Position numbers and translations under genes: made by a program
Shown here: positions 5,864-35,720 of the stretch, in pieces
Position numbering within the stretch: the first letter of the stretch is position 1
Layout of the letters: every line of letters begins with the position of its first letter
Notes under the pieces: model-generated
Database searches by the model: none
Told to the model about the DNA's origin: nothing
The model's input: the letters and a program-made list of their open reading frames with translations, nothing else
From: Alphaproteobacteria bacterium
GTDB taxonomy: Bacteria > Pseudomonadota > Alphaproteobacteria > Micropepsales > Micropepsaceae
Direction: 5' to 3'
Assembly: GCA_020852655.1 (NCBI GenBank)
Contig: JADZAI010000100.1
Span: 12,135 to 76,134 of the forward strand
Length of the DNA: 64,000 bases

Positions 5864-6574
5864 TCAGGCTGCCACGCCGCGGGCCAGCCAGTCGCGCACG
5901 TTTTGCGGCTCGCCGCCGAACGCATCGCCGACGCGCAAGCCGAAGCCGCCCAGCTTGTACGCCATGGCGATCCCGTCTTCGTCTGTGAGGTCGTCGCCGA
6001 CATAGACCGGCGTCCGGCCCGCGAAGGGCGCAGCCTCCATGAGGATCGCGACCGCCCGGCCCTTGGACGAGGCGCGCGGCTTCACTTCGTAGGCCATCTT
6101 CGCCGGCATCACGATGAAGCCCTCGCGTTCGAGATCGGGGAGGCTTTCGACCAGGGCCTTCACCTCGGCCTCACGGTCGGGCGCGAGGCGATAATGGACG
6201 CAGACCGAGCGCGGCTTGCGCTCCACCACGATGCCCGGCCAGGTCTCCGCGGCGGTGCGCAGGATCTGAAGCCAGATCCGGGGCATCAACGGGGAGCGGG
6301 TCTTGTCGAGCGAACCGTCGGGCATCCGGACGACAGCGCCGTGTTCGCCCGCCCCCGCTCCCTGGTAGGGACTGAGCAGATCGTCCAGCACGGCCAGTTC
6401 GCGGCCGCTGACCACGGCCACGGCGCCATCCAGATCATGACGAATCCGGCTGAGTTCCAGCGCCAGCCGCTCAGGTACCGCTACGTCATCCGGGCGGTCG
6501 GCGATGTCGAGGAGTGTCCCGTCCAAATCCAGGAAAAGCGCCCAGTCGCGCTGAATTTCCGTGGCGTCCCGCAT
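5864..6574 (-). CDS. otsB: Trehalose-6-phosphate phosphatase (HAD)
   Basis: ALFLDLDGTL, VVSGR, YVGDDLTDEDG HAD motifs; first gene of the otsB-GH15-otsA operon. Start placed at ATG 6574, downstream of the predicted promoter. Confidence 0.94.
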   Translation of the reverse strand: MRDATEIQRDWALFLDLDGTLLDIADRPDDVAVPERLALELSRIRHDLDGAVAVVSGRELAVLDDLLSPYQGAGAGEHGAVVRMPDGSLDKTRSPLMPRIWLQILRTAAETWPGIVVERKPRSVCVHYRLAPDREAEVKALVESLPDLEREGFIVMPAKMAYEVKPRASSKGRAVAILMEAAPFAGRTPVYVGDDLTDEDGIAMAYKLGGFGLRVGDAFGGEPQNVRDWLARGVAA

Positions 6575-6608
6575 GCCCCGCCTTTCCGTTTCTTTGCGCT
6601 GCAACACA

Positions 6609-6634
6609 AACGCCGCCCCGACCGAACGAGTTCC
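6609..6634 (-). promoter_or_regulatory. EcfG/SigT (general stress response) promoter GGAAC-N17-CGTT for otsB-GH15-otsA
   Basis: The - strand reads GGAAC tcgttcggtcggggcgg CGTT, ending 34 nt upstream of the otsB ATG; matches the established alphaproteobacterial GSR sigma consensus GGAAC-N16/17-CGTT. Confidence 0.8.
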
Positions 6635-6643
6635 CGCCGGGCG

Positions 6644-6672
6644 GTGTCATCTAACTGTCATCCAGACGACAT
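6644..6672 (+). promoter_or_regulatory. Pho box (PhoB site) upstream of pstS
   Basis: GTGTCAT (6644) and CTGTCAT (6655) at 11-bp spacing, plus degenerate ACGACAT (6666). Confidence 0.85.
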
Positions 6673-6770
6673 AAACGCTTGACCGTCAGCCCCTACAGGC
6701 GGGGCCGCAGGGGTTTAAGGGCTCGTTAAGGCGACGGCCCAAGCCCCCCAAGCCAAGGGGATTAGCCCAG

Positions 6771-7733
6771 ATGAAGAAACTCAGCGCCGCTCTCGCGCTG
6801 TTCGCCTCGGTGTCGCTCGCGACCCTGGCCTCCGCGAATGAAATGGACAAGCGCTTCCAGCCCTACGCGCCGACCTCGGGCGTTTCGGGCACGCTGAAGT
6901 CGATCGGTTCGGACTCGCTCAACAACCTGATGACGTTGTGGGCCGAGGATTTCCGCAAAGCCTATCCGAGCGTGACGATCGAAATCGAGGGCAAGGGTTC
7001 GTCGACCGCGCCGCCGGCGCTGATCGCCGGCACCGCCCAGCTCGGACCGATGTCGCGCCCGATGCGGGCCGCCGAGTCGGACCAGTTCGAAGCGAAATAC
7101 GGCTACAAGCCGACGGCGGTTCGCGTCGCGGTCGATACGCTGGCGGTGTTCGTGAACAAGGACAATCCGATTGCCTGCCTGTCGCTGACGCAGCTCGATT
7201 CGATCTTCTCGGTCACGCGCAACATGGGCGGCCAGGCGATCGACACGTGGGACCAGGCGGGCGGCACGGGCGACTTCGCCGGCAAGCCGATCTCGCTGTT
7301 CGGCCGCAATGCCGCCTCGGGCACCTATGGCTATTTCAAGGAAGTCGCGCTGGGGAACGGCGACTATCGCAGCACCGTGAAGGAGCAGCCCGGTTCGTCG
7401 GCCGTGGTGCAGGGCGTCGCCGCCGACAAATATGCGATCGGCTATTCGGGCATCGGCTACAAGACCGCCGACGTGCGCGCGATCGCCGTCTCGGGCCGCG
7501 ACGGCCAGTGCTACGAGGCGACGCAGGAGAACGCCTATAAGGGCACCTACCCGATCACGCGCTTCCTCTACATCTACGTGAACAAGAACCCGTCGGCGCC
7601 GCTCGACCCGGTGCTGCGCGAGTTCTTCAAGTTCGTGCTCTCGGCGGACGGCCAGGACGACACGAACAAGGACGGCTACTACCCGATGCCCTACGTCTTC
7701 GCGACCGAAGACGTGGCGAAGATCAGCCAGTAA
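6771..7733 (+). CDS. pstS: Phosphate ABC transporter substrate-binding protein
   Basis: Signal peptide; SIGSDSLNNLMTLWAEDF, GSSTAPPAL, FGRNAASGTYGYFKE, YPITRFLYIYV. Confidence 0.97.
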   Translation: MKKLSAALALFASVSLATLASANEMDKRFQPYAPTSGVSGTLKSIGSDSLNNLMTLWAEDFRKAYPSVTIEIEGKGSSTAPPALIAGTAQLGPMSRPMRAAESDQFEAKYGYKPTAVRVAVDTLAVFVNKDNPIACLSLTQLDSIFSVTRNMGGQAIDTWDQAGGTGDFAGKPISLFGRNAASGTYGYFKEVALGNGDYRSTVKEQPGSSAVVQGVAADKYAIGYSGIGYKTADVRAIAVSGRDGQCYEATQENAYKGTYPITRFLYIYVNKNPSAPLDPVLREFFKFVLSADGQDDTNKDGYYPMPYVFATEDVAKISQ

Positions 7734-7750
7734 CCCCTCCCGAGATCCAG

Positions 7751-7776
7751 CGGCGGACGGTGGGGGCCGTCCGCCG
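7751..7776 (+). other. Intercistronic stem-loop after pstS
   Basis: CGGCGGACGG-tggggg-CCGTCCGCCG, a perfect 10-bp stem between pstS and pstC; no U-tract, so probably an mRNA-stabilising hairpin. Confidence 0.6.
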
Positions 7777-7826
7777 GCGGAGCGTTCCGGCCCCCGCCGA
7801 ATTCCAGCCGCAAGCGGGGACTCCCG

Positions 7827-29191: not shown

Positions 29192-29746
29192 ATGAACTCC
29201 GTCTGCGTTTTCTGCGCCTCGTCCTTCGGGGCGAGCTCCCTCTACCGCGAGGCCGCCGAAGATCTGGGACGGCGCATCGCCGGCGCCGGCCTGCGCCTGG
29301 TCTATGGCGGCGGCAGCGTCGGGCTGATGGGCGTCGTCGCGCGGGCGGCGAAGCGGGCCGGCGGCGATGTCGTCGGCGTCATCCCTGCCTTCCTGCGCTA
29401 TGCGGAAATCCCCGAGACGGAGATCACCGAGCTGCACATCGTCGATTCCATGCACGCGCGCAAACAGAAGATGTTCGACCTCGCGGACGGCTTCATCTCG
29501 CTGCCGGGCGGGATCGGCACGCTGGACGAGACGATCGAGCTGATGACCTGGGCCCAGCTCGGCCGGCACGGCAAGCCGCTGCTCCTCGTCGACACGCTCG
29601 GCTACTGGTCGGCCTTCCAGGACCTGATGCGGGTGATCCTGGAGCAGGAATTCGCCCGCCCCAGCCTCAGCGATCTCTACCGCGTGGTGGCCGATCCCGA
29701 GCAGGCGGTCAGCGCTCTTCTGGCGACACGATCATCGGCCGCCTGA
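29192..29746 (+). CDS. LOG-family nucleotide phosphoribohydrolase (TIGR00730-like)
   Basis: VCVFCASS, LVYGGGSVGLMG, MHARK, PGGIGTLDE. Confidence 0.94.
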   Translation: MNSVCVFCASSFGASSLYREAAEDLGRRIAGAGLRLVYGGGSVGLMGVVARAAKRAGGDVVGVIPAFLRYAEIPETEITELHIVDSMHARKQKMFDLADGFISLPGGIGTLDETIELMTWAQLGRHGKPLLLVDTLGYWSAFQDLMRVILEQEFARPSLSDLYRVVADPEQAVSALLATRSSAA

Positions 29747-30620
29747 AGGCCTCCAGCGAGACCACCACCAGCGCCGCCCAGATGAAGCCGAAGCTGACGA
29801 GGCGCATCATGTCGAAGGGCTCGTCATAGAGCGCGACGGCGATGACCAGCGAGATGGTCGGCGCGATATATTGCAGGAAGCCCATCGTCGACATCCGCAC
29901 CCCGCGCGCGCCTACCGCGAACATCCAGAGCGGCACGGCGGTGATCGGCCCGGCCAGCATCAGCAGCAGCGACATCGACGGGCCGGTGTGGGCGAAGGCG
30001 AGATCGCCCTCCCCTTCGCGCCACAGCAGATAGCCGAGCGCGATAGGCGCGATCAGCAGCGTCTCGATGAAGAGCCCATCCAGCGCCTCGACGCTGACCA
30101 CTTTGCGGATATAGCCGTAGATGGCAAAGCTGGTTGCCAGCACGAGCGAGATCCACGGCACGAAGCCGAGCGCCCAGGCCTGCATCGCGACACCGACCGC
30201 CGCCAGGACGAGCGAGGCGATGCGCACCGGACTGAGCTTTTCGCCCAGCAGCACGACGCCGATGGCGATCACGATCAGCGGATTGATGTAATAGCCGAGC
30301 GACGTCTCGATGATGCGGCCCTGCTGCACCGCCCAGATGAAGATGCCCCAGTTGCTGCCGATGAACACCGCGCAGGCGGCCAGCGCCAGCAGGGTCCGGC
30401 GCGTGGTCAGCGCCCTGCGGATGGCCGCCCAGCGGCCCAGCGCCAGCACGATCGGCACGAGGAAGACCAGGCACCACACGACCCGGTGCGCGAGCACCTC
30501 CCAGGCCGAAACGGCGCCGACCCATTTCCAGTAGACGACGACAAGCCCCCAGATCACATAGGCGAGCGTGGCAGCGAGAACGCCGTTCAGCGTGTCGGCA
30601 GGCTTGGCAGGGGCTGGCAT
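29709..30620 (-). CDS. rarD: EamA-family transporter RarD
   Basis: EVLAHRVVW, SLGYYINPL, GFLQYIAPT, FGFIWAAL. Confidence 0.93.
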   Translation of the reverse strand: MPAPAKPADTLNGVLAATLAYVIWGLVVVYWKWVGAVSAWEVLAHRVVWCLVFLVPIVLALGRWAAIRRALTTRRTLLALAACAVFIGSNWGIFIWAVQQGRIIETSLGYYINPLIVIAIGVVLLGEKLSPVRIASLVLAAVGVAMQAWALGFVPWISLVLATSFAIYGYIRKVVSVEALDGLFIETLLIAPIALGYLLWREGEGDLAFAHTGPSMSLLLMLAGPITAVPLWMFAVGARGVRMSTMGFLQYIAPTISLVIAVALYDEPFDMMRLVSFGFIWAALVVVSLEAFRRPMIVSPEER

Positions 30621-30623
30621 GGC

Positions 30624-32225
30624 TCAGAGCGGCGTGTGGCCGTCGCGGAGGAGTTTGTAGGTGATCGAGTCGGCGAGCGCCTCGAACGAGGCGTCGACGA
30701 TGTTGGGCGAGACCCCGACGGTGGACCATCGCCGGCCCTCGCCATCCGCACTCTCGATCAGCACGCGCGTCACGGCCTCGGTGCCGGAGGTAAGGATACG
30801 GACCTTGTAGTCGACCAGCCTGAGGTCTTCGAGCACCTTGGAATAACCGCCGAGATCCTTGCGCAGCGCATCGTCCAGCGCATCGACCGGGCCGTTGCCC
30901 TCGCCCACCGAATGGATGGTGCGGCCGTGCACGTTGGTCTTCACCGTCGCTTCCGACACCGTCGTCAGCTCGCCGCGCGCGTTGAAACGGCGCTCGACCA
31001 GCACGCGGTAGCCTTCGACCTTGAAATAGTCGGGCACCTGGCCCAGCGCGCGGCGCGCCAGCAATTCGAACGAGGCGTCGGCGCCCTCATAGGCATAGCC
31101 GAGGAACTCGCGCTCCTTCACGTCATCCAGCAGCCGCTTGATGCGTGCGTCCTTCGGATCGAAGGCGATGCCGAGCTGCTCCAGCCGCGTCAGCACGTTC
31201 GAGCGCCCCGCCTGGTCCGAGACCAGGATCTTGCGCGCGTTGCCGACCGATTCCGGCGGCACGTGCTCATAGGTCTTGGGGTCCTTCAGCACCGCCGAGG
31301 CATGCAGCCCGCCCTTGTGCGCGAAGGCCGAGGCGCCGACATAAGGCTGGTGCCGGTTCGGGGCGCGATTGAGGATTTCATCGAGCAGCCGCGAGACCTC
31401 GACCAGCCGCTTCAGGTTCTCGGCATCGACGCCGATCTCCAGCGTCGAGCGATAGGGTTCCTTCAGCGCCAGCGTCGCGATCAGCGACAAGATGTTGGCG
31501 TTGCCGGTGCGTTCGCCGAGGCCGTTCAGCGTGCCCTGGATCTGGCAGACCCCGGCTTCGACGGCCGCCAGCGTGTTGGCGACGGCGTTCTCGGTGTCGT
31601 TGTGGGTGTGGACGCCCAGACGCTCGCCTGGGAAGCGCCGCGTCACCTCGCGGACAATGCGATAGACCTCCGACGGCAGCGTGCCGCCATTGGTGTCGCA
31701 CAGCACCGCCCAGCGCGCGCCGCCGTCGAACGCGGCTTCGAGGCATTGCAGCGCATAGTCGCTATTCGCCTTGTAGCCGTCGAAGAAATGCTCCGCGTCC
31801 AGCATCGCCTCCTTGCCGCGCGCTGCGACGGCGGCGATCGACTCGCGGATGCAGACGAGATTCTCCTCGCGCGGGATGCCGAGCGCGACGTCGACCTGGT
31901 AGTCGTGGCTCTTGCCGACGAGACAGCCGGCGCCGGCTTTCGCGTTCAGGATGGGCGAGAGCGTGGGATCGTTTTCCGCGCTGACGCCAGCCCGCTTGGT
32001 CATGCCGAATGCGGTGAAGATCGCGTGTTTCAGCGTCGGCGGGGCATCGAAGAAGGCGGTGTCGGTGGGGTTCGCGCCCGGCCAGCCGCCTTCGACATAG
32101 TCCAGCCCCAACGAATCCAGCGCCAGCGCGATCTGCCGCTTGTCCTCGACGGAGAAATCGACGCCGCTGGTCTGCGCGCCGTCGCGCAGCGTCGTGTCGA
32201 AGAGATAGACGCGGGTCTTGCTCAC
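30624..32225 (-). CDS. cimA: Citramalate synthase
   Basis: [66 protein letters not shown] start at 32225 overlaps the cysS TGA (GTGA). Confidence 0.9.
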
Positions 32226-33598
32226 AGCGCTCTCCATGTCGTACCGGCCGCGCTGTCCTCGACGGTCAGGCCGGCGTCGAGCAGCCGGTCGCGCACACGA
32301 TCGGCCTCAGCGAAGTTCTTGCTCTTGCGCGCTTCGGCACGCGCGGCGATGAGCGCCTCGATCTCCTCCGCCGTGATCGGCAGCTTGGCCGGCATCCACG
32401 AGCGATATTGCTCCGCCGTCTGGCCGAAGAAGCCGAGCAGCAGGCCGCCGGCCCGCAGCGCCCGCGCCGCGTCCTTCGATTTGCCCGCCGCGCTGCGCAG
32501 CCTGTGCAGCTCGGCGATGGCTTCCGGCGAGTTCAGATCGTCGCTCACCGCGGCGACCACCGCGCCGGGCGGCGCGACCGGCGCTTCGTCCTCGACCTTC
32601 GCTACCGCTTCGTACCAGCCGCGCATCACGGTGCGCGCCTCGTTCGCGCCGGCTTCGGTCCAGTTGGTCGGCTGGCGGTAGTGCGAGGAGAGCATCTGGA
32701 GGCGCAGATTCTCGCCGCGATACTGGTCGAGCAGCTCGCGGATCGTGAAGAAATTGCCGAGGCTCTTGGACATCTTCTCGCCTTCCACATTCAGGAAGCC
32801 GTTATGCATCCAGATATTCGCCATCACGGGCGTGCCGTGCGCGCAGCGGCTCTGGGCGAGTTCGTTCTCGTGATGCGGGAAGGCGAGGTCGATGCCGCCG
32901 CCGTGGATGTCGAAGACTTCGCCGAGATGCTTCCACGCCATCGCCGAGCACTCGATATGCCAGCCCGGCCGGCCGCGGCCCCAGGGGCTGTCCCAACCCG
33001 GCATGCCTTCGTCCGAAGGCTTCCACAGCACGAAATCCATCGGGTCGCGTTTGTACGGCGCGACGTCGACGCGGGCCCCGGCGATCATGTCGTCGATCGA
33101 GCGGCCCGAGAGCTTGCCGTAGTCCGGCATCGAGGGGACGTGGAAGAGCACATGCCCCTCCGCGACATAGGCATGCCCCTTCTCGATGAGCCGCTGGTTC
33201 AGGAGGATCATCTCGGCCAGATGCTCGGTGGCGCGGGGCGTCACGCTGGGCGGCAGGCAGCCGAGTTCGGTCACGTCGGCGACATACTGGTTCGCCGTCT
33301 TCTCGGTCACCTGGCGGATCGCCGCGTTCAGCTCCATGCCGGGAAAGTCGCGGGCGGCGCGCGCGTTGATCTTGTCGTCCACGTCCGTGATGTTGCGGAC
33401 ATAGGTGACGTGATCGATGCCATAGGTGTGGCGCAGCAGGCGGTAGAGCACGTCGAAGACGATCACTGGCCGCGCATTGCCGATATGGGCGAAGTCATAG
33501 ACCGTGGGGCCGCAGACATACATCCGCACGTTGGCCGGATCGATCGGCGTGAAGTCCTGCTTGGCGCGGGCGGCGGTGTTGTAGAGCTGAATGGTCAT
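32222..33598 (-). CDS. cysS: Cysteine--tRNA ligase
   Basis: [48 protein letters not shown]. Confidence 0.98.
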
Positions 33599-33620
33599 CT
33601 TCGAACGGTCGGATGCGAGG

Positions 33621-33643
33621 AAAACGGGGCTAGCGCGGCCCCG
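33621..33643 (-). terminator. Intrinsic terminator in the cysS leader (candidate attenuator)
   Basis: The - strand reads CGGGGC-cgcgcta-GCCCCG-TTTT, ending 22 nt upstream of the cysS ATG. Confidence 0.65.
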
Positions 33644-33702
33644 CGGTTTCCGTCCGAACGTCAGATGTGTTCAGGCAAAAGCGTCGCGCGACCGCTGAGG
33701 GA

Positions 33703-33750
33703 TCAGCAGCAAATTCGCCAAATGCGACACTGGGCGAGCGCCATGAACAT
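33703..33750 (-). CDS. Cys/Ile-rich leader peptide MFMALAQCRIWRICC (candidate cysS-cimA attenuator peptide)
   Basis: Manual translation: ATG TTC ATG GCG CTC GCC CAG TGT CGC ATT TGG CGA ATT TGC TGC TGA. Three Cys codons with a terminal Cys-Cys, upstream of cysS and of a terminator hairpin. Below the ORF-track length cutoff. Confidence 0.65.
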   Translation of the reverse strand: MFMALAQCRIWRICC

Positions 33751-33794
33751 GAGGTTACTTATGCCCCGCCGCCCGGGGCGGGCGCAAGGGGCCG

Positions 33795-34112
33795 TCAGCG
33801 CGCCCGCCGCGCGGCCCGCCTAAGCGTCTCGTCGATCCGCGTCTGCCAGCCCGGCCCGGTGCTTCGGAAGTGCCGCAACACCTCGGAGGAGAGCCGCAAG
33901 GTGATCAGTTCCTTGGGCGAAATCGCCTTCGGCCGGCCGATCCGCTTGCCGCCCTTGCTCAGCCAGCCGCCCGCAATCTCAGCTTCGGTGAATTCGGGTG
34001 CGTCGTCGTCGGGCGCGGGAACAATGGCATCGATCGCCGCAAGTTCGGCCGCCGTAGGTTGACGAACAATCAGCTTAGAACTTCCTGCCGTAGCGCGCTT
34101 GCTCGCGGTCAT
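33795..34112 (-). CDS. brnA: BrnA antitoxin
   Basis: DDDAPEFT...GRPKAISPKELITLRLSSEVLRHFRSTGPGWQTRIDETLR. Confidence 0.93.
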   Translation of the reverse strand: MTASKRATAGSSKLIVRQPTAAELAAIDAIVPAPDDDAPEFTEAEIAGGWLSKGGKRIGRPKAISPKELITLRLSSEVLRHFRSTGPGWQTRIDETLRRAARRAR

Positions 34113-34347
34113 TGCACTTCCTCAGCGAAATAATCCGGCGTTCGCCGGAGCGTTCTGTCCAGACCACCATCACCATGCGCCCGGCCAGATGACCGATCGA
34201 GATCATCCGTCGCTCACCATAGTCGCGGCGCGTGTCGGGAAAGTCATAAGTCACAGACGCGAACACCGCTGCGGCGAGATCCAGATCTATCCCGTGCTTG
34301 GCGAGGTTGGCCTGCCGTTTTGCAGCGTCATAGCTGATCCGAACCAC
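34075..34347 (-). CDS. brnT: BrnT toxin (ribonuclease)
   Basis: ISYDAAKRQANLAKHGIDL...DYGERR...VVWTER...RIISLRKCN. Confidence 0.94.
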   Translation of the reverse strand: MVRISYDAAKRQANLAKHGIDLDLAAAVFASVTYDFPDTRRDYGERRMISIGHLAGRMVMVVWTERSGERRIISLRKCNDREQARYGRKF

Positions 34348-34352
34348 GACTT

Positions 34353-34381
34353 AACGTAGTTACAGAAACTATAGGCGTCAA
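34353..34381 (-). promoter_or_regulatory. Sigma70-type promoter of brnTA with overlapping operator
   Basis: TTGACG-N17-TACGTT on the - strand; TAGTT-N5-AACTA dyad at 34357-34371. Confidence 0.6.
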
Positions 34382-34388
34382 GTACAGC

Positions 34389-35720
34389 CTACGCCCGCTC
34401 GCCGCGTAGCCGCGCCACAGCCCGGCTTCGGCCGATGAACGGGAGCAGCTTCTTCATCTCGGGGCCGTGGTTGCGGCCGGTCAGGGCCAGGCGGAGGGGC
34501 AGGAAGAGGTCCTTGCCCTTCTTGCCGGTCGCGGCCGAGACGGCTTTCGTCCAGGGCTGCCATGTCGCCTCGGTCGGATCGCCCTCGGGCAGCAGGTCGG
34601 CGGCCTGAGACGTTAGCGCCGCATCGGCGACCACCGGCGTCAGCGGCGCCGTCGCGACGTTCCACCAGTCCATGGCATCGGAGGCGGCCTCCAGATTGTC
34701 GCGCACCGCCAGCCAGAAATCCTCGCCGATACCCGCCGGGGCGAGGATCGCCGCCACCTCGGCCCACGGGCGCATATGCAGCAACTTCACGCTCAGCCGC
34801 TTCAGGTCGTCAGGGTCGAGGCGCGCGGCGGAGTGGCCGATCTTGGCGAAGGCGAATTCGGCGGCGAGTTCGTCCAGGGTGCGGCGCGGCTCGATCGGGT
34901 CGGAGGTGCCGATCTTGGCGAGGAGGGCGTTCACCGCCATCGGATCGATCCCGCCAGCGCGCAAATCTTCCAGCGACAGCGAGCCCAGCCGCTTCGACAG
35001 CTTCTCGCCGTCCTTGCCTGTGATCATCGGGTAATGCGCGAAATGCGGCAGCGCGCCGCCCAGCGCCTGGAAGATCTCGATCTGCACCGCCGTGTTGACC
35101 ACATGGTCCTCGCCCCGGATCACATGGGTGATCGCGAAGTCGATGTCGTCCACCACGCTCGGCAGCGTGTAGAGGAACTGCCCGTCCTCGCGCACCAGCA
35201 CGGGGTCGGAGAGCGTCGCGGTATCGACCTTCACCTCGCCGCGCACGAGGTCGGTCCAGGTTACCGGACGCTGCGCCAGCCCGAAGCGCCAGTGCGGCCG
35301 GCGGCCTTCGCCCTCCAGCCGCGCGCGATCCTCCGCCGTCAGCTTCAGCGCTGCGCGGTCATAGACCGGCGGATGGCCCAGCGCGCGCTGGCGCAGGCGG
35401 CGGCGCTCCAGTTCCTCCGGCGTTTCATAGGCGGGATAGAGCAGCCCCGCCGCCTTCAGCCGCTCCAGTGCCTCGCGATAGCGATCGAAGCGATCCGACT
35501 GCCGCGCGAACACGTCATGGCGCAGCCCGAGCCACGCGAGGTCAGCCAAAATGCCCGCGGCGAATTCCGCCGTCGAACGCTCGGTGTCGGTGTCGTCGAG
35601 GCGCAGCAGGAACGAGCCCTGCTGCTGGCGCGCAAACAGGAAATTCAGAACCGCGGCGCGCGCATTGCCGACGTGCAGCTTGCCGGTAGGCGAGGGCGCG
35701 AAACGGACGCGAACACTCAC
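34389..35720 (-). CDS. gltX: Glutamate--tRNA ligase (probably one of the two alphaproteobacterial paralogues)
   Basis: [45 protein letters not shown]. Confidence 0.96.

Follow-up and report, generated by a model that had tools for sequence, protein, structure and literature searches.

What sets the expression of cysS and cimA in a bacterium of the Micropepsaceae? The question is raised by one locus in a 64,000-nucleotide (nt) stretch of the alphaproteobacterial contig JADZAI010000100.1, and this whole stretch is called the window here. On its minus strand lie cysS, which encodes cysteine--tRNA ligase (CysRS; 32222-33598), and cimA, which encodes citramalate synthase (30624-32237). Upstream of cysS, a 196-nt gap that begins after brnA houses both a 15-codon open reading frame (ORF) with three Cys codons and a terminator-like hairpin. 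A sequence-only reading of the window had taken the two for a leader-peptide attenuator that senses cysteine and perhaps isoleucine. What we observed is conservation of this leader in related genomes, compatible alternative pairings in its RNA and a predicted folding switch. Comparative sequence data and the folding model together make it likely that the leader is a ribosome-mediated (leader-peptide) attenuator of a cysS-cimA(-rarD) operon, with cysS as the first gene under its proposed control. The sequences also raise a broader idea, to which we give about even chances: that leaderless leader peptides responding to both Cys and Ile control a conserved cysS-cimA operon throughout the Alphaproteobacteria, and that the window's element is the form found in one lineage.

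A conserved cysteine-containing ORF precedes cysS

The leader ORF, MFMALAQCRIWRICC, consists of 15 codons and a TGA on the minus strand (33703-33750), with its ATG at 33750 and its TGA at 33705-33703, and it stops 104 nt upstream of the cysS ATG (33598). The sequence-only reading had placed it correctly, together with an alternative start at a second in-frame ATG (33744), which is shared by only 3 of the 15 sequences described below. Three of its 15 codons are Cys codons, compared with 0.63% Cys in the neighbouring genes. Among 301 ATG-started short ORFs (sORFs) of 10-25 codons in the 64-kb window, 6 have at least three Cys, and 2 of those 6 are the leader ORF itself. Four neighbouring genes use ATT 3 times and ATC 77 times for Ile, TGT once and TGC 10 times for Cys, and CGA for 2 of 131 Arg codons. 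By this usage the ATT, ATT, TGT and CGA of the leader ORF are rare codons, and the contrast between ATT in the leader and ATC in the flanking genes is as the sequence-only reading had described it.

Relatives of the leader were gathered in three ways: by a genome scan (four close relatives with the same leader), by a scan of metagenomes with a DNA pattern (six), and from contigs that encode the closest CysS proteins (five). The pattern scan gave 14 matches, of which 6 were genuine, all with the order gltX-leader-cysS, and 8 were chance matches inside unrelated sequence. The resulting alignment, A3, holds 15 deduplicated sequences including the window, and the CysS proteins of the 14 relatives are 69-93% identical to the window's. 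The relatives are metagenome-assembled genomes (MAGs) of unclassified Alphaproteobacteria and Micropepsaceae (Micropepsales), from sludge and bioreactor samples. Positions in the leader are numbered from the A of its ATG as nt 1 (window coordinate = 33751 - nt).

The 15-codon ORF stands at the same place and in the same frame in all 15 aligned sequences. A Cys-containing ORF upstream of cysS in relatives, on which the sequence-only reading had staked its proposal, was found in 14 of 14 relatives with at least two Cys each. There are 13 distinct leader peptides, with the consensus M-[FL]-x4-[QPI]-C-x3-R-I-[CSF]-[CRY]-stop. Examples from the relatives are MFMALAQCRVWRIFC (L095), MFTRPAQCPFWRICC (L002), MFTRPAQCWFGRICR (L005), MFTRALQCQKARISC (L001) and MLTRRAICCFERICC (L096, which has four Cys). 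The ATG, UGU8, CGA12, AUU13 and TGA are invariant, and codons 2-11 otherwise vary freely, with no indels or in-frame stops. Cys stands at codon 14 in 11 of the 13 distinct peptides and at codon 15 in 10 of them. The UGU of Cys8 (33727-33729, minus strand) lies outside the productive stalling window modelled below. The most conserved part of the leader is outside the ORF, at nt 54-116.

A second conserved reading frame over the leader was considered and rejected: it lacks a start codon, and its register against the leader ORF is not conserved.

One relative, L001 (CAYMIJ010000011.1), was deposited as 'uncultured Flavobacteriaceae'. Its CysS is 80% and its CimA 86% identical to the window's and it has the same leader; the taxon label is likely a binning or labelling error.

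The leader RNA can fold into mutually exclusive structures

The leader RNA was described as segments that pair in alternative ways. Segments 1 and 2 form hairpin P3 (33691-33710, minus strand), in which nt 41-48 pair with nt 53-60 (GCUGCUGA with UCAGCGGU). The 5' arm, GCUGCUGA, contains Cys14, Cys15 and the stop codon. P3 folds with -10.4 kcal/mol (z -3.4), and 98% of its alignment cells are paired in the 15 sequences.

Segments 2 and 3 form a larger hairpin at nt 56-116 (33635-33695, minus strand; -27.3 kcal/mol), a candidate antiterminator and anti-sequestor. In this 2:3 hairpin GCGGUC.CGCG pairs with CGCG.GGCCGC, and the bridge between them is itself a hairpin, UUUUG-CUGAAC / GUUCGG-ACGGA, with a 9-nt loop (33680-33650). 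It is the minimum-free-energy structure whenever the edge of the ribosome is at nt 49-55. Across the 15 sequences 98.4% of its cells are paired, while slid controls in the comparison of P3 and the 2:3 hairpin reach 33-45%. All 7 variable pairs go to wobble-compatible bases, and in L001 a 16-nt insertion falls exactly within the bridge loop.

Segments 3 and 4 form the terminator-like hairpin (33621-33643, minus strand). As the sequence-only reading had found, it consists of CGGGGC (33643-33638), N7 and GCCCCG (33630-33625), is followed by UUUU (33624-33621), and lies 22 nt before the cysS ATG; its folding energy is -13.3 kcal/mol. This hairpin is also the tip of a sequestor domain at nt 84-155 (33596-33667, minus strand; -31.6 kcal/mol, z -2.9), in which the invariant CAUCUGACGUUCGGACGGA is paired with 30 nt that end in the cysS AUG. 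The sequestor duplex is more stable than shuffled sequences in 15 of 15 cases (z -1.4 to -6.1), despite the differing 3' strand. The 2:3 hairpin and the sequestor domain are mutually exclusive, which would explain the near-invariance of nt 54-116.

A helix at the 5' end, UGUUCA:UGAACA (P1), was attractive in single-sequence folds. It is broken in three relatives whose peptides start with ML and was dropped from the core model. Searches of positions 33000-34400 against Rfam gave no match at E up to 10, T-box included, and Rfam 15 returned nothing relevant in the leader or in six other alphaproteobacterial cysS loci.

The position of a ribosome on the ORF is predicted to switch the fold

The effect of a ribosome on the leader was modelled by restricting the fold to RNA downstream of the ribosome, whose edge was set at +15 from the first base of the P-site codon; the transcript ended just past the U-tract. 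This scheme replaced an earlier one in which the leader ORF was masked inside the whole RNA at equilibrium; there the start region remained unopened and helices spanned the ribosome.

In the window, an A site on any of codons 6-10 gives the terminator hairpin a probability of 0.96-0.99; at codon 11 the value is 0.48, over codons 12-15 it is at most 0.04, and at the stop codon it is back at 1.00. The same sensing window appears in all 15 sequences, where the mean is 0.00-0.03 for codons 12-15 and 0.74 for the stop. The proposed sensing window, defined by this footprint-dependent folding, is thus codons 12-15 (33706-33717, minus strand), CGA AUU UGC UGC, which encode a rare Arg, a rare Ile, Cys and Cys. 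Because the invariant CGA-AUU-UGC-UGC block coincides with it, the Ile13 codon becomes a candidate sensor beside the two Cys codons.

The leader ORF is probably leaderless

No Shine-Dalgarno sequence precedes the leader ORF. A -35-like hexamer of a putative leader promoter, TTGCGC (33782-33787, minus strand), and a -10-like hexamer, CATAAG (33758-33763, minus strand), lie upstream, the latter 7 nt before the leader ATG. TTGCG(C/G) is present in all 15 family members; in most relatives the -10-like hexamer is CATAGT, 6 nt before the ATG. Every copy in the alignment follows the same layout of TTGCG(C/G), 16-18 nt, CATAGT or CATAAG, 6-7 nt and ATG. The window and L095 have the same hexamers though their spacers are 18 and 16 nt.

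The promoter-like segment is also kept in three different contexts: overlapping the end of gltX, behind the brnTA insertion of the window and, probably, of L095, both with a remnant of the gltX end, and behind another upstream gene in L001. Other alphaproteobacterial cysS leaders show a clearer form of it, CTTGAC-N17-hexamer-N6-7-ATG. A scan with the E. coli consensus called no promoter at the leader. From this spacing, transcription probably starts at the A of the leader AUG or one base before it, and the leader ORF would be translated as a leaderless message. The leaderless start is a point that we add to the attenuator of the sequence-only reading, where it was not raised.

Proposed mechanism

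We infer the transcription start, the translation of the leader ORF, the stalling and the regulatory outcome as follows. Transcription would start at the A of the leader AUG or one base before, and the 15-codon ORF would be translated directly from the 5' end. Segment 1 would comprise Cys14, Cys15 and the stop codon, that is, the 5' arm of P3, and segment 2 the 3' arm of P3 with the next bases (nt 53-67). Segment 2 could alternatively pair with segment 3 (nt 105-116), which is otherwise the 5' arm of the GC hairpin, behind which the window has UUUU. For the invariant stretch that separates segment 2 from segment 3 there would be two alternatives: to fold on itself and complete the 2:3 hairpin, or to pair around the cysS AUG.

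In the OFF state there would be no ribosome on the leader, or a ribosome at the stop codon that covers the base of segment 2; the 3:4 hairpin would then form and the cysS start would be buried. In the ON state, a ribosome awaiting Cys-tRNA on codon 14 or 15 would melt P3 and leave segment 2 (nt 56-67) free. A wait for Ile-tRNA on AUU13, or slowing on the rare CGA12, could have the same effect. Once the 2:3 hairpin had formed, the terminator arm would be occupied and the cysS start exposed. Low charged tRNA-Cys would in this way lead to more CysRS, and low charged tRNA-Ile to more citramalate synthase, the enzyme of the first step of the threonine-independent route to isoleucine.

Related leaders precede cysS across the Alphaproteobacteria

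The sequence-only reading had suggested a search for a conserved Cys/Ile-enriched short ORF, with covarying stems, across the class. The ORF was found widely, while the key helices of the window's own family show no covariation. In 77 of 90 alphaproteobacterial cysS loci there is a Cys/Ile-rich ATG-started sORF about 110-170 nt upstream, of 13-28 codons as scored and mostly 14-20. Over the 90 loci the mean sORF score (2xCys+Ile) is 6.4 on the sense strand and 1.9 on the antisense strand (Wilcoxon p 2e-14). The lineages with such leaders include Hyphomicrobiales, Rhodobacterales and others. Examples are MNGFLAICGICREITS from a Bradyrhizobium MAG and related soil MAGs, MTCSIRLCRTICIIG, MTLKPAIAALCGIICS, MRQNVSRSRCIIIAS, MKTVICIICRNIIR from S. 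meliloti, and four from Rhodobacterales, MRPRAIIRICLICR, MTTAATIICCITC, MTQTATITICCIIG and MTTLRNIRICCITR. A nucleotide profile of the window's family searched against the other leaders with nhmmer gave no significant match.

Ile makes up 20.8% of the 71 unique leader peptides and Cys 11.4%, where the window's genes have 4.6% and 0.63%, and the ATT:ATC ratio of the leaders, 166:75, is the opposite of normal usage. Ile stands at position -3 from the stop in 13 of 13 window-type leaders and in 51 of 54 others. At position -2, 72% of the other leaders have Ile or Cys and 85% of the window-type leaders have Cys. Within the class, the leaders of the window's lineage are the richest in Cys and the poorest in Ile.

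The stop codon lies within the 5' arm of a hairpin in 61 of 67 leaders, compared with 32 in a shuffled control. In this stop-codon hairpin UAG..CUG and UGA..UCA covary, and the triplet stays a stop codon every time. Such retention of the stop in a covarying hairpin is the best evidence from the alignments that the leader ORFs are read by ribosomes. Across the class, Cys and Ile codons would occupy the few positions where a stalled ribosome frees the anti-sequestor.

Of 80 loci, 73 have cimA downstream of cysS, and so do 6 of 6 loci from Rhodobacterales. Dual Cys/Ile sensing, which the sequence-only reading had floated for the window, is supported by AUU13, invariant inside the modelled sensing window, by the 21% Ile of the class leaders and by the nearly constant presence of cimA downstream. 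The class gives the idea more support than the window does by itself, because the Ile/Cys pattern and the cysS-cimA synteny are both class-wide.

Thirteen cysS loci, for example L034, L059, L063 and L068, show no such leader ORF. The downstream designs of the leaders differ between lineages, and L033 is one case. There (2413-2500) a GTG-started upstream ORF (uORF), MKLCCQTGIRISG, overlaps the gltX stop and has its own stop within the loop of GCGGC-UGAAUUU-GCCGC, followed by CGUUUUUCG; the hairpin is directly followed by U5. Judged by its sequence this hairpin is a plain intrinsic terminator, and a ribosome near the end of the uORF would occlude it.

The S. meliloti locus has pip and three GFA-family genes between cysS and cimA, and rarD follows cimA as in the window. 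In strain Ak57 (L110, CP090106.1, 2304-8997) the gene table lacks the cimA homologue, whose sequence at 6225-7809 gives matches in two frames, the sign of either a frameshift or a sequencing error. The record CP090106.1 is labelled plasmid pSymB, yet it is 3.7 Mb long and chromosome-sized.

Start-codon burial and the rival explanations

Which step the leader regulates decides between two versions of attenuation. In pure transcription attenuation, 33701-33692 would pair with 33646-33639, as the sequence-only reading had proposed, and termination at 33621 would be the sole regulated step. That pairing is compatible in 96% of cells across the 15 sequences, against 43-65% in slid controls; every member has a pyrimidine-rich P3 loop, which could pair with GGGG; and the window's hairpin folds with -13.3 kcal/mol and ends in UUUU. 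The segment in question, nt 50-59, would however be covered, or just reached, by a ribosome stalled on Cys14 or Cys15 (edge nt 52-55). It is disfavoured because it is largely covered in this way, and minimum-free-energy folding picks nt 56-67 with nt 105-116 instead, so that the proposed antiterminator is possible and is not the preferred one. A hairpin is found at the 3:4 place in all relatives, but a run of at least three U follows it in only 3 of 15 members, namely the window (UUUU), L003 (UUU) and L001. L095, the closest relative (CysS 93% identical), has UU, and a simple terminator scan made no call at the window's hairpin. Pure termination would also leave the conserved complementarity to the cysS AUG unexplained. 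We consider it unlikely. Because burial of the cysS AUG is conserved while the U-tract is not, the model suggests that start-codon sequestration is probably the main conserved output in the family, and termination less so; some intrinsic termination in the window itself is possible. Of the ribosome-mediated attenuation first proposed, the conserved Cys ORF within mutually exclusive structures stands, and termination as its main output probably does not.

A different reading dispenses with translation: the leader would be a structured RNA, either a riboswitch or a protein- or tRNA-binding operator such as one for CysRS autoregulation, and the ORF a by-product of nucleotide conservation. The position of the best-conserved part (nt 54-116) outside the ORF would suit it, as would the lack of synonymous change in UGU8, CGA12 and AUU13, the helices without covariation, as if primary sequence mattered, and the missing Shine-Dalgarno sequence. 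It is harder to reconcile with unrelated alphaproteobacterial lineages that keep a 13-20 codon ORF of different sequence with the same Ile/Cys enrichment and Ile at -3, with stop-codon hairpins that change by swapping one stop codon for another, and with the empty Rfam search, in which T-boxes were included. We rate it somewhat lower still, as improbable. A CysRS operator that mimics tRNA-Cys was rejected on inspection of the alignment, which has no conserved loop with a GCA anticodon-like sequence. Lastly, a chance ORF might sit beside a chance hairpin, with cysS served by a nearer promoter or by read-through from the upstream toxin-antitoxin genes. The 64 kb do hold 4 other Cys-rich sORFs, and the promoter and terminator scans gave no significant result. 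Yet genomes with CysS proteins that are only 69-80% identical share an almost unchanged leader, all 6 metagenome copies have the same gltX-leader-cysS order, and the class-wide statistics are strong. Chance is very improbable, and the conservation of the leader is the reason to set it aside.

Several observations weigh against the preferred reading, a ribosome-mediated attenuator that acts mainly on the cysS start codon. The 2:3 hairpin shows 0 compensatory double changes across the alignment; the key helices of the family are almost invariant, and other causes of this conservation are possible. The absence of synonymous variation in UGU8, CGA12 and AUU13 suits an RNA-level constraint as well as selection for rare codons. 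Cys8, invariant and outside the productive window, would favour the OFF state in the model. The pairing first proposed (nt 50-59 with 105-112) is equally compatible in the alignment, and the 3:4 hairpin has only 4 U behind it, a tract that is absent from the closest relative, and no call from the terminator scan. The promoter hexamers match the sigma-70 consensus at only 7 of 12 positions, and metatranscriptome contigs from runs that contain the locus span only conserved parts of cysS and brnT, outside the leader. The ribosome edge is an assumption, and moving it by up to 3 nt shifts the sensing window by one codon.

The folding of the complete RNA belongs to the same side of the balance. At equilibrium the full-length window RNA retains the 3:4 hairpin whichever part of the leader ORF is masked, and the unpaired probability of the cysS start region rises only from 0.32 to 0.51-0.65; a full flip is seen in 8 of 15 relatives. 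Relief of start-site sequestration is clear in truncated transcripts and partial in full-length equilibrium folds. With only partial opening at full-length equilibrium, the switch must be kinetic and co-transcriptional or be held by the stalled ribosome.

Gene order around the leader

The minus strand carries, in order, gltX (35720-34389), brnT (34347-34075), brnA (34112-33795), the 196-nt gap, cysS, cimA and rarD. The identities of cysS (NCBIfam TIGR00435, 467 bits) and cimA (TIGR00977, 640 bits) and their GTGA overlap, all named in the sequence-only reading, were borne out. The cysS TGA (32224-32222) shares bases with a GTG at 32225, which gives a 4-nt overlap with cimA. An alternative cimA start, an in-frame ATG at 32237, lies 12 nt further up and would extend the overlap to 16 nt. 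rarD, encoding an EamA-family transporter (29709-30620, minus strand; TIGR00688, 222 bits), starts 3 nt past the stop codon of cimA; it is probably co-transcribed with cysS and cimA as the third operon gene. Exporters of cysteine or O-acetylserine are found among the EamA-family proteins.

A BrnT toxin (PF04365, 34347-34075) and BrnA antitoxin (PF14384, 34112-33795) pair is inserted on the minus strand between gltX and the cysS leader. In L095 a BrnA is found at the same position, preceded by a gap of the size of brnT. In the relatives other than the window, L095 and L001, gltX is directly upstream of the leader. Between brnA and the leader about 45 nt remain that resemble an old gltX 3' end (...LAPAPGGGA*), and these bear the putative promoter hexamers.

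The spacer of the putative promoter (33764-33781, minus strand) contains a GC hairpin that lacks a U-tract, GCCCCG-GGCGG-CGGGGC, directly after the brnA stop; in L095 the small hairpin at this position is a different one. The window's hairpin may be a remnant terminator or a stabiliser for brnTA. In the metagenome contig L102 (2862-4377), the cimA call is split into pieces of 127, 103 and 212 amino acids (aa), the last of them truncated at the edge of the locus, while the leader and cysS are intact; this cimA is either disrupted or hit by assembly errors.

Implications

If the proposed attenuator is real, the pair of Cys and Ile would join a short list of multivalent leader-peptide attenuators, and there would be a reason for cysS and cimA to travel together across the Alphaproteobacteria. 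A motif reported only for Rhodobacterales would extend to other orders, including those of the well-studied genera Sinorhizobium and Bradyrhizobium. The leader would be another leaderless mini-ORF that acts mainly by exposing a start codon and not by blocking a terminator. The unannotated 15-codon gene would merit annotation, and regulation of the alphaproteobacterial citramalate pathway would become testable by a few codon swaps.

Comparison with known systems

The enterobacterial trp, pheST (pheM leader), thr (Thr and Ile) and ilv attenuators follow a four-segment logic of 1:2, 2:3 and 3:4 pairings with the regulatory codons in segment 1. In them a ribosome that has come to the stop codon covers segment 2. 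A synthetase gene as target of attenuation has a precedent in pheST, and the thr and ilv leaders carry regulatory codons for more than one amino acid. Classical leaders have uORFs led by a Shine-Dalgarno sequence and strong U-rich terminators, whereas the window's uORF is apparently leaderless and its U-tract is weak, or absent elsewhere in the family. None of the classical cases pairs Cys with Ile, and the predicted conserved output of the window's leader is start-codon sequestration.

Within the Alphaproteobacteria, the trpL/rnTrpL attenuator of S. meliloti has a leaderless leader ORF of 14 aa, whose mRNA begins at its AUG (PMC10117765). It resembles the window's proposed attenuator in being alphaproteobacterial and built on a leader ORF; unlike it, trpL senses Trp, controls trpE(G) and is unrelated in sequence.

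Leaderless polycysteine sORFs of mycobacteria were shown experimentally to relieve sequestration of a ribosome-binding site (RBS) on Cys limitation (Canestrari et al. 2020, bioRxiv 10.1101/834739). The likeness lies in a leaderless short ORF with Cys codons, putatively leaderless in the window, before cysteine-related genes. The mycobacterial sORFs are actinobacterial and non-homologous, have longer Cys runs and no Ile component, and control operons of cysteine metabolism, not cysS-cimA. In mycobacteria the sORF region itself pairs with the RBS, while in the window the effect is predicted to be relayed through the 2:3 hairpin.

In Deinococcus deserti, differential RNA sequencing mapped the transcription start of cysS to the AUG of a 10-aa ORF with 2 Cys, and the authors proposed this short ORF as an attenuation leader (de Groot et al. 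2014, PMC4007540). That leader belongs to another phylum and is shorter; no structure model and no link to Ile or cimA is described for it, and its function was unassayed there.

The closest known system is the uORFC-8-2 motif (Brewer et al. 2021, RNA Biol, PMC8632094), of which 145 examples were reported, all upstream of cysS in Rhodobacterales. Its uORF starts with AUG and carries tandem Cys codons, in most cases as codons 14 and 15; the first stem holds these Cys codons, and a terminator stem with a U-run follows in all cases. It was read as a candidate ribosome-mediated attenuator. The window's leader likewise lies directly upstream of cysS and has an AUG-started uORF with UGC UGC as codons 14 and 15, a first stem (P3) that contains the Cys codons and a second stem behind it. 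The four Rhodobacterales leaders compared here share with it the Ile at -3, the stop-codon hairpin and the downstream cimA.

The differences from uORFC-8-2, as described, are several. The motif was described only for Rhodobacterales and the window's family comes from a Micropepsales-like lineage. The motif always has a 3' U-run, whereas the window has UUUU and most of its family has no U-run. The window's family also has a distinct near-invariant block of 60 nt that is predicted to bury the cysS AUG. Ile codons, cimA and leaderless initiation are unmentioned in the accessible text of the uORFC-8-2 paper. Rfam 15 has no model for uORFC-8-2 and no family that matches the window or the real Rhodobacterales leaders.

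A literature search, with subscription journals outside its reach, turned up no report in which a cysS leader is connected with cimA or with Ile codons. No description of cysS-cimA synteny or of a regulatory coupling was found in the searchable literature, nor was any experimental test of alphaproteobacterial cysS leaders. The novelty that the sequence-only reading had seen in a cysteine attenuator before cysS does not hold in that form: a Cys-Cys uORF ahead of cysS is already published as a candidate attenuator of Rhodobacterales (PMC8632094), and the window's leader is a new variant of that class. What appears to be new, and apparently unreported, is the link of the cysS leader to isoleucine and cimA.

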